From Eledone cirrhosa (lineage: Eukaryota), in assembly GCA_964016885.1 (NCBI GenBank), contig OZ024751.1, forward strand, positions 43,958,001-44,022,000: DNA of 64,000 nucleotides, in the 5' to 3' direction. The notes under the pieces are model-generated. The model made no database searches, was not told where the DNA came from, and worked only from the letters and a program-made list of their open reading frames with translations. Positions 56,514 through 57,875 of the stretch are shown piece by piece. A program made the position numbers and the translations under genes. Each line of letters starts with the position of its first letter. The first letter of the stretch is position 1.

Positions 56514-56517
<4 letters not shown>

Positions 56518-57870
56518 TAATTTAATATATCAACTAACATAAGCGCACAGATGCACGCCCATGCCAGCAAATACACAGGTTATGTCATAGTACCTAGGTG
56601 GTTCAATGCAGGAGAATGCAGAACAATAATATAAAGGACGTAAAATAAGAAAATATTTTTTTAAAAAAATTTAAAAAAAATTTTTTTCTTACTTAAATTT
56701 TCACTCCAACTAATTAGTTTCTGCAATGGGATAAAGACAGTTACGTAATCCAACTGTCGAGAATTCATTGCGTCATCAGGGAGTCTATTCTCAGTTAAGT
56801 CTCCAGGCAATGCGCGGACACTGGCGGCTCATATAAAAATAATAATAATTCGGTAGATCGAACAGCTTGCGAGGACTGGATTCTATGTACCGAAATTCTC
56901 ACTGCTTCAAGTCAAATGGCCGATTCTAAAGAATCAATCACGTGACACAGAGGCTAGTTAGAAGGAATGGGATGGTAAGATGACTGACGCCTACTAACAC
57001 CCCAAAAAAAATTTTTTTAGAAGTGGTTTTGACAAGTTTGCTCGAGACTCCCTGATGACGCAATGAATTCTCGACAGTTGGATTACGTAACTGTCTTTAT
57101 CCCATTGCAGAAACTAATTAGTTTGAGTGAAAATTTAAGTAAGAAAAAAATTTTTTTAAAATTTTAAAAAAAAAATATTTTCTTATTTTACGTCCTTTAT
57201 ATTATTGTTCTGCATTCTCCTGCATTGAACCACCTAGGTACTATGACATAACCTGTGTATTTGCTGGCATGGGCGTGCATCTGTGCGCTTATGTTAGTTG
57301 ATATATTAAATTATCTATATTTATCTCCAAATCACTGATTTGTCGAGCAAACTTGTCAAAACCACTTCTAAAAAAATTTTTTTTGGGGTGTTAGTAGGCG
57401 TCAGTCATCTTACCATCCCATTCCTTCTAACTAGCCTCTGTGTCACGTGATTGATTCTTTAGAATCGGCCATTTGACTTGAAGCAGTGAGAATTTCGGTA
57501 CATAGAATCCAGTCCTCGCAAGCTGTTCGATCTACCGAATTATTATTATTTTTATATGAGCCGCCAGTGTCCGCGCATTGCCTGGAGACTTAACTGAGAA
57601 TAGACTCCCTGATGACGCAATGAATTCTCGACAGTTGGATTACGTAACTGTCTTTATCCCATTGCAGAAACTAATTAGTTGGAGTGAAAATTTAAGTAAG
57701 AAAAAAATTTTTTTTAAATTTTTTAAAAAAAATATTTTCTTATTTTACGTCCTTTATATTATTGTTCTGCATTCTCCTGCATTGAACCACCTAGGTACTA
57801 TGACATAACCTGTGTATTTGCTGGCATGGGCGTGCATCTGTGCGCTTATGTTAGTTGATATATTAAATTA

Positions 57871-57875
<5 letters not shown>
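56514..57875. mobile_element. Family H composite: inverted full unit (56514-57045), 5'-truncated direct unit (57046-57320), 22-bp linker, full direct unit (57343-57875)
   Basis: Three near-identical copies. Partial tandem plus inverted terminal repeat is the known Penelope pseudo-LTR arrangement. Hammerheads at 56703-56784 (-), 57047-57128 (+) and 57604-57685 (+). Confidence 0.85.
57604..57685 (+). ncRNA. Type I hammerhead ribozyme motif, family H, extended stem II
   Basis: ACTCC CTGATGA C-GCAATG-AATTCTC-GACAGTT-GGATTACGT-AACTGTC-TTTATCC-CATTGC-A GAAA CTAATTAG TT GGAGT; predicted cleavage after GUU at 57680. Confidence 0.85.

Follow-up and report, generated by a model that had tools for sequence, protein, structure and literature searches.

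Penelope-like element (PLE) insertions are characterised, in the sections of PMC8557442 drawn on here, by partial tandem copies, an inverted copy truncated at its 5' end, a tail on one side and a TA bias, all given as standard features, and the way in which PLEs build tandem and inverted insertions is described there as unresolved. The PLE protein studied in PMC11167929 cuts and extends both strands, uses two internal start sites that define a tail and is predicted to be a dimer. Metazoan non-LTR retrozymes, which are tandem hammerhead repeats, are treated as PLE-dependent elements in PMC7229834 and 10.64898/2026.07.22.740005: the former proposes PLE-RT-primed circular RNA as the source of tandem copies and reports minor circular dimers in vitro, and the latter links retrozymes to PLE pseudo-LTRs, suggests local amplification and reports that 8 of 9 predicted retrozymes failed to cleave. 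A rolling-circle idea is also mentioned in PMC6765202. For retrozymes and PLEs a circular RNA template has been proposed, and a demonstration of one was not found in the literature searched. PLEs are thus already known for copies in tandem and in inverted order, for a tail on one side and for (TA)n targets, and non-LTR retrozymes for tandem hammerhead repeats.

The locus compared here with these systems lies in a 64,000-nt stretch of the Eledone cirrhosa assembly GCA_964016885.1 (contig OZ024751.1, positions 43,958,001 to 44,022,000 of the forward strand), referred to as the window, to which all plain coordinates below belong. Quite probably it is genuine and an unremarkable copy of a family that is new but belongs to a known kind, namely a non-LTR retrozyme or non-autonomous PLE-mobilised repeat, and the family, not the locus, carries the weight of this report.

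Structure of the locus

The insertion consists of a minus-strand arm (56516-57045) lying head-to-head with a plus-strand arm (57046-57875), between a left (TA)16 (56484-56515) and a right (TA)15 (57873-57902) target microsatellite. Monomer positions were numbered from 57124 (position 1), and one 557-nt monomer runs from predicted cleavage site to predicted cleavage site at 57124-57680 on the plus strand. In this numbering the inverted arm comprises monomer 220-557 and 1-~197, with its 3' end (the long site, B) facing left, and the direct arm comprises monomer 479-557, 1-557 and 1-~197, with its 3' end likewise at site B; the two meet 5'-to-5' at 57045-57046 with a 1-nt overlap. The ~120-nt tail, which extends from the short end site A (~57759, monomer ~79) to site B (monomer ~197-201), occupies 57760-57875 of the direct arm.

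A preliminary description of this DNA had divided the locus into an inverted unit, a truncated direct unit, a 22-bp linker and a full direct unit, all nearly identical. The near-identity was borne out: 56486-57045 and 57343-57902 are 100% complementary over 560 nt (TA runs included), the inverted arm and the direct unit differ over 533 nt by a single mismatch within a T/A run, and the direct copies 57045-57324 and 57602-57881 are 98% alike at a spacing of 557. The division into pieces was not, since the supposed linker (57321-57342, plus strand) is monomer 198-219 and the direct arm, in place of a separate full unit, is an uninterrupted 1.5-unit tandem read. Monomer 198-219 also lies between units in the multi-unit arrays examined, and in run X24 there are 411 raw DNA reads in which it continues into the following unit; the segment therefore joins units in other copies and is not unique to this locus. 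Terminal blocks match between the arms (one run-boundary difference), and the middle block differs from the terminal block at ~5 positions, 57124 among them. The simplest reading is that the template held at least two different units and was primed twice at site B; as an alternative, the matching terminal blocks may reflect arm-to-arm conversion.

The element holds no meaningful ORF, in agreement with the preliminary description. ATG ORFs of at least 40 aa were limited to one of 62 aa inside the element and a 74-aa TA-repeat frame, the longest stop-free stretch in a tandem dimer was 55 aa, and an ORF with RT and GIY-YIG endonuclease was absent from the element by ORF scan and in the tandem-dimer reading frames. 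The monomer has 36% GC and is structured, with a linear fold z of -3.2, and a sibling monomer folded as a circle gave a z of -4.2 (40 shuffles).

That the inversion is an assembly or fold-back read artefact was considered, as the arm is a nearly perfect match to the distal unit, the locus is the only one with two B ends among 37 two-armed insertions (see below), and the junction is spanned by no contig or read in runs X1, X2, X5 and X24, whose sequence departs from that of the window at many sites and in which the insertion need not be present (X24 is a reduced-representation run). An artefact is nevertheless highly improbable: the flanks beyond the TA runs are not mirrored, the arms are unequal, the 1-nt overlap at the junction is of the kind found in siblings (overlaps of 1-8 nt in 25 of 37 arm junctions), and the same geometry recurs genome-wide and in other families within the window.

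Copy number, sampling and age of the family

A 26-mer from the ribozyme had 2,576 exact matches in the genome (control, 0) and a wider core had 9,628; the first 100 26-mer matches fell into 60 loci, from which ~1,500 loci are extrapolated. Analysis was carried out on 60 young insertions, made up of the best 40 of 334 candidates and 20 arrays from 37 scored of 454, a set biased toward young and long copies. Repetition of the genome search with the reverse strand gave the identical 40 candidates. These 60 best-hit insertions contain 1.3-13.9 monomer equivalents each and include plain tandem arrays; 37 are two-armed and 23 one-armed. Among the first 60 loci taken by position along C1, 11 are two-armed, and with both counts the composite structure loses the special standing first given to it. 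The family is dispersed and multi-copy, without LTRs, and is built of tandem non-coding units, each with a predicted type I hammerhead. Outside homopolymer runs, unit-private substitutions amounted to 77 in 138,503 bases (5.6e-4 per base), by which the insertions appear very young, as had been proposed for this locus.

Six sequencing runs under four organism labels contain at least half of the unit words, and the family therefore extends beyond this assembly; in four RNA or RNA-like runs under other organism labels (X17-X20), just 0.04 of the unit words were present and no reads were placed, a result that with so few words has no bearing on expression.

These properties resemble those of metazoan non-LTR retrozymes (PMC7229834; 10.64898/2026.07.22.740005), which are likewise non-coding tandems of low GC with a type I hammerhead per unit, dispersed as arrays of few units in genomes that hold PLEs. 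The unit length of 557 nt falls within the 51-972 bp retrozyme range of 10.64898/2026.07.22.740005 and exceeds the 150-450 bp of the units in PMC7229834. Unlike non-LTR retrozymes as portrayed in the parts of these papers used here, which have a canonical hammerhead, the present family has a minimal, palindromic PLE-type hammerhead, arms that are often inverted, ends paired at fixed sites, and (TA)n as its target.

End sites, arms and junctions

The 3' ends of the family fall at two sites ~120 nt apart, A at monomer ~79 and B at ~197-201, and (TA)n follows 94 of 97 of them. Of 37 young insertions with two arms, 36 have one A and one B end (p 3e-10 against a model of independent ends), the sole exception being the present locus, which is B/B with the tail on both arms. 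The A/B rule also held in all 11 two-armed loci chosen by their position on C1 (L113-L123) and in 6 of 6 related-subfamily two-armed loci with both ends scorable (20 fetched), and a corresponding short/long rule held in 7 of 8 scorable two-armed insertions of the autonomous family described below (15 loci; scored by eye). Mixed-strand clusters among the first 100 matches were head-to-head in every case (11/11). The insertion architecture was already known; what this analysis adds is a measure of how nearly strict the pairing is, with one site for each arm.

Neptune/Naiad-type PLE insertions share with the family the partial tandems, the inverted 5'-truncated copy, the tail at one end only and (TA)n targets without a discernible target-site duplication, and differ from it, as far as PMC8557442 covers them in the sections used, in having an ORF and a tail of 30-40 nt; here there is no ORF, the tail is ~120 nt and many units are possible per arm. 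The Poseidon PLE of Anolis in vitro (PMC11167929) likewise has two internal starts downstream of the hammerhead that define a tail, makes use of both strands and reverse transcribes through the cleavage site. In the experiments reported in the available part of that paper, the start site is without target homology and the strands were not seen to differ in it, whereas the sites here are TA-like and the arms nearly always differ.

The preliminary description had reverse transcription run through a tandem or circular ~557-nt template and then invert. A 557-nt tandem retrozyme-like template, a PLE-type architecture and RT across the cleavage site are retained from it; the single pass followed by inversion is not, since the outer ends are 3' ends primed at fixed (TA)n sites and the arms meet 5'-to-5', which two primings explain better than a pass and a flip.

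None of 97 5' ends lies within 3 nt of the predicted cleavage site, and the candidate explanation that ribozyme cleavage sets the 5' ends was rejected on that count. The 5' ends are enriched in an A/T hairpin at monomer 10-66 (21/97), and 11 of 97 fall at 476-500 against 4.4 expected, a soft cluster defined post hoc. The start of the direct arm at stem I, which had been pointed out, is mostly chance, this soft cluster aside, as 2 of 74 inner ends fall at 476-482. The L039 junction (G000:C28:73701500-73709000) contains a 71-nt insert of repeated short copies of monomer ~100-120, and looks as if the enzyme had re-primed several times.

Hammerhead motifs

CTGATGA cores at 57052(+), 57609(+) and 56779(-) mark the three hammerhead motifs that had been reported. 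Cut sites were predicted by manual comparison with the hammerhead consensus: those of the plus strand follow 57123 and 57680, which reproduces the reported 557-nt spacing, and that of the minus strand lies between 56708 and 56707. Motif 1 (56703-56784, minus strand) has an intact consensus and is the mirror of 57604-57685; in motif 2 (57047-57128, plus strand) the first pair of stem I is lost through a private G>T at 57124, the mismatch seen earlier; and motif 3 (57604-57685, plus strand) consists of stem I (57604-08/57681-85), the core CTGATGA (57609-15), an extended helix II (57617-65) closed by a C/A mismatch, GAAA (57667-70), a palindromic stem III and a GUU triplet.

Rfam gave 0 hits on these motifs at the gathering score, and by E-value chance hits only, so the hammerhead call depends on the consensus of the core together with covariation. 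Across 18 aligned variants of the family, 92.8% of cells were paired (31-45% in slid controls of the same alignment), with both-side changes in 7 of 22 pairs, and the covariation score was reached by 0 of 500 shuffles, a control that related sequences can exceed. The core is almost invariant and the compensatory changes fall in helix II; covariation supports that helix and bears on it, the near-invariant stems I and III not being probed by it. Stem III does not form in predicted monomer folds, and its palindrome gives a predicted 12-bp intermolecular duplex between two copies (-13 kcal/mol), as expected for dimer cleavage.

Features of a minimal PLE-type hammerhead are present, namely the core CUGANGA...GAAA...NUH, a helix I of 4-5 bp and a palindromic helix III, in a variant with C/A at the base of helix II. 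The motif shares with the minimal PLE hammerheads of PMC4209133 a 5-bp helix I, a long helix II, an extra nucleotide after A9 with a G-C pair next, and a palindromic helix III suited to dimer cleavage. It differs from them, as described in the portion of that paper drawn on, by an additional A between helix II and GAAA, present in 18 of 18 aligned variants, and because of this A and the GUU triplet the predicted ribozyme activity is uncertain.

Passage through the cleavage site is seamless, the junction there being unaltered in 171 of 172 units and in 98 of 99 further units. T57124 is private (1/172 units and 0/99 further units, both anchor-based counts in which some arrays were missed by the anchors). 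Release of a unit-length RNA from this locus, which the preliminary description had envisaged, is doubtful on sequence grounds, because the predicted upstream ribozyme bears this private stem I mismatch.

Unit variants and the template

Forty-eight variants were found in at least two units of one insertion, and 41 of these occur in every covering unit; of the other seven, four occur in a subset common to both arms, two in adjacent units of one arm and one in 7 of 8 units. Mean unit distance was 2.03 inside an arm, against 2.68 from one arm to the other and 5.48 from one insertion to another. With this sharing of variants and these distances, each insertion derives from one haplotype background and some unit differences arose before insertion.

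The alternative that a single unit was inserted and the array later grew by slippage, unequal crossing-over and gene conversion, as in a satellite, would account for the two subset variants confined to adjacent units of one arm (L135, L137) and for the L131 period-2 mark, which spans just part of an arm, and arm-to-arm conversion could give the B/B ends and near-identical arms of the present locus. Such growth is improbable, however, as both arms are often multi-unit with subset variants in common (four cases), neighbouring units resemble each other no more than average (lag-1 p 0.61), and at 5.6e-4 private substitutions per base the insertions are very young.

Two insertions show order among their units. 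At L045 (G000:C4:311539700-311548000) two unit types alternate, with five full units in one arm and two in the other. At L049 (G000:C13:22679700-22687000) m2 equals p4 and m4 equals p1, the remaining pairs differ and m1 is closest to p3, an order that fits a five-unit ring read from two starting points, the L049 markers sitting in homopolymer runs, which are prone to assembly error and slippage. Similarity at lag 2 gave a pooled p of 0.0004 (one of four lags), which became 0.09 without L045; counted by arm, 11 favour it, 11 oppose it and 3 are tied. A general period-2 structure is accordingly not established. The unit order of L042+111 matches no simple ring.

The proposal that both arms copied one stretch in the same register was rejected, as it predicted 10 units for the L042 plus arm, where 9 were found, and the units of the same rank in the two arms were not more alike (pooled p 0.51). 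These results also bear on cDNA fold-back self-copying and on L1-style twin priming, in which one linear RNA is divided between the arms. Both have the head-to-head geometry and the short microhomology in common with the family. Under fold-back the units should come in one and the same order when counted inward from either outer end, against which stand the lack of same-rank similarity, the permuted order of L049 and the failed L042 register, and neither fold-back nor twin priming predicts fixed, complementary A and B ends; we regard this pair of explanations as unlikely.

A tentative reading, to which we give nearly even credence, is that the arrays are a record of rolling-circle reverse transcription, in which a dimeric PLE enzyme would prime both strands at two fixed RNA sites on circles of one, two or five units. 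As part of this reading, and with the same credence, whole multi-unit two-armed arrays would be written in a single event. Pooled support for circular templates is modest, and a periodic linear source array would give the same pattern, shifting the circle back one generation.

It is also a serious possibility, though one we incline against, that the template was an uncleaved linear multimer transcribed from existing arrays and that insertion was PLE-driven with the hammerhead largely idle and no circle. Hammerhead cleavage is dispensable and unprocessed RNA is the main substrate in vitro in the part of PMC11167929 cited, minimal PLE hammerheads are of low activity in that of PMC4209133, the seamless junctions and the lack of 5' ends at the cut site (0/97) suit uncleaved RNA equally, most arms are without periodicity, and L042+111 matches no simple ring. 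Linear copying, however, cannot lengthen arrays, and young insertions reach 13.9 monomer equivalents; array-private variants present in every covering unit, in both arms in L061 and L140, imply a one-unit bottleneck; the permuted order of L049 needs a period-5 template; and helix II covaries across subfamilies. For a test of circular templates, L045 and L049 are the best loci.

Penelope-like machinery in the genome

The genome holds 10,596 GIY-YIG candidates, among them a young autonomous PLE family with a 775-aa frame that comprises RT, CxxxxCxxC and, at the C terminus, GIY-YIG. At least 81 copies were found at 98-100% protein identity. By the linker motif given in PMC8557442, as far as that source was available, its sequence appears Neptune/Nematis-like. 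Its copies (L151-L162, L091, L096 and L099; for example G000:C2:375820500-375829500) are inserted at (TA)n with short and long ends and a ~70-nt tail, and have end motifs before (TA)n (CTTTATA, TCTA) similar to those of the 557-nt family. An own hammerhead was not found in the 775-aa family by motif scan; canonical hammerheads are said, in the sections of PMC8557442 used, to be universal in C-terminal-endonuclease PLEs. In 15 autonomous loci, matches to the 557-nt unit were AT-rich chance matches only, so the 775-aa family is a plausible, not an identified, helper.

A pseudo-LTR sharing unit sequence was not found in 40 GIY-YIG loci, 15 loci of the young family (3 overlapping) or 20 related loci, a tiny sample of the 10,596, and no PLE-like frame joined to the ribozyme was found among the 20 related loci. 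L099, with a 79% match, was rejected as a pseudo-LTR partner because the match belongs to an insertion of its own, on the far side of a long TA tract. Chlamys MRC1-type elements (PMC8557442) are likewise non-autonomous, PLE-dependent, multicopy head-to-tail insertions; according to the passages available their 3' end is similar to that of their autonomous partner and they are mostly without hammerheads, whereas no such partner was found here.

Other hammerhead repeats

Further head-to-head insertions in TA-rich DNA were noticed in the window at 55789-56297, 30600-31265, ~5900-6300, ~11000-11420 and ~33400-33800; these five belong to at least three unrelated families and have minimal hammerhead motifs on both arms, and that at 55789-56297 has a short and a long end and a ~145-nt tail. 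At 32422-32764 a related subfamily is represented by a two-armed insertion of greater age (~75-83% identity), with compensatory helix II changes and one short and one long end. Hammerhead-like cores and inverted repeats adjoin TA runs at ~29900-30450, ~58020-58390 and 59471-59602. A run of 200 N at 5373-5572 is distant from the element. Other tandem hammerhead repeats were seen at L092:7200-7720 (~459 nt), L101:8568-9130 (~511 nt) and L153:6988-8487 (~465 nt), and these periods suggest that there are several retrozyme families in this genome.

Proposed course of insertion

We consider it quite probable that the locus is a young insertion of an abundant, protein-free hammerhead repeat, likely non-autonomous, that uses PLE RT/GIY-YIG in trans, probably of Neptune type. 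Tandem arrays would first be transcribed, and minimal hammerheads would cut the transcripts weakly, as dimers via the palindromic stem III, to give monomers and multimers of which a fraction would be ligated into circles. A PLE protein dimer would then nick both strands of a (TA)n tract, and each 3' end would prime RT internally on the RNA, normally one at A and one at B, perhaps helped by short TA complementarity. Each enzyme may read through the cleavage site and copy units in varying number, after which the two cDNA ends would be joined via 1-8 nt of microhomology. Against this explanation stands the departure of the present locus from the A/B rule.

Implications

PMC7229834 puts forward circular RNA as the template of retrozymes, a proposal that competes with the satellite-like local growth suggested in 10.64898/2026.07.22.740005, as represented in the sections of both sources used here. 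The near-identical multi-unit two-armed insertions of this family allow unit order to be read in both arms, and because the same genome holds a young PLE with an intact frame, both the template question and the question of PLE insertion are directly testable. If the rolling-circle reading is true, the alternation at L045 and the permuted order at L049 would be DNA traces of multimeric RNA circle intermediates.
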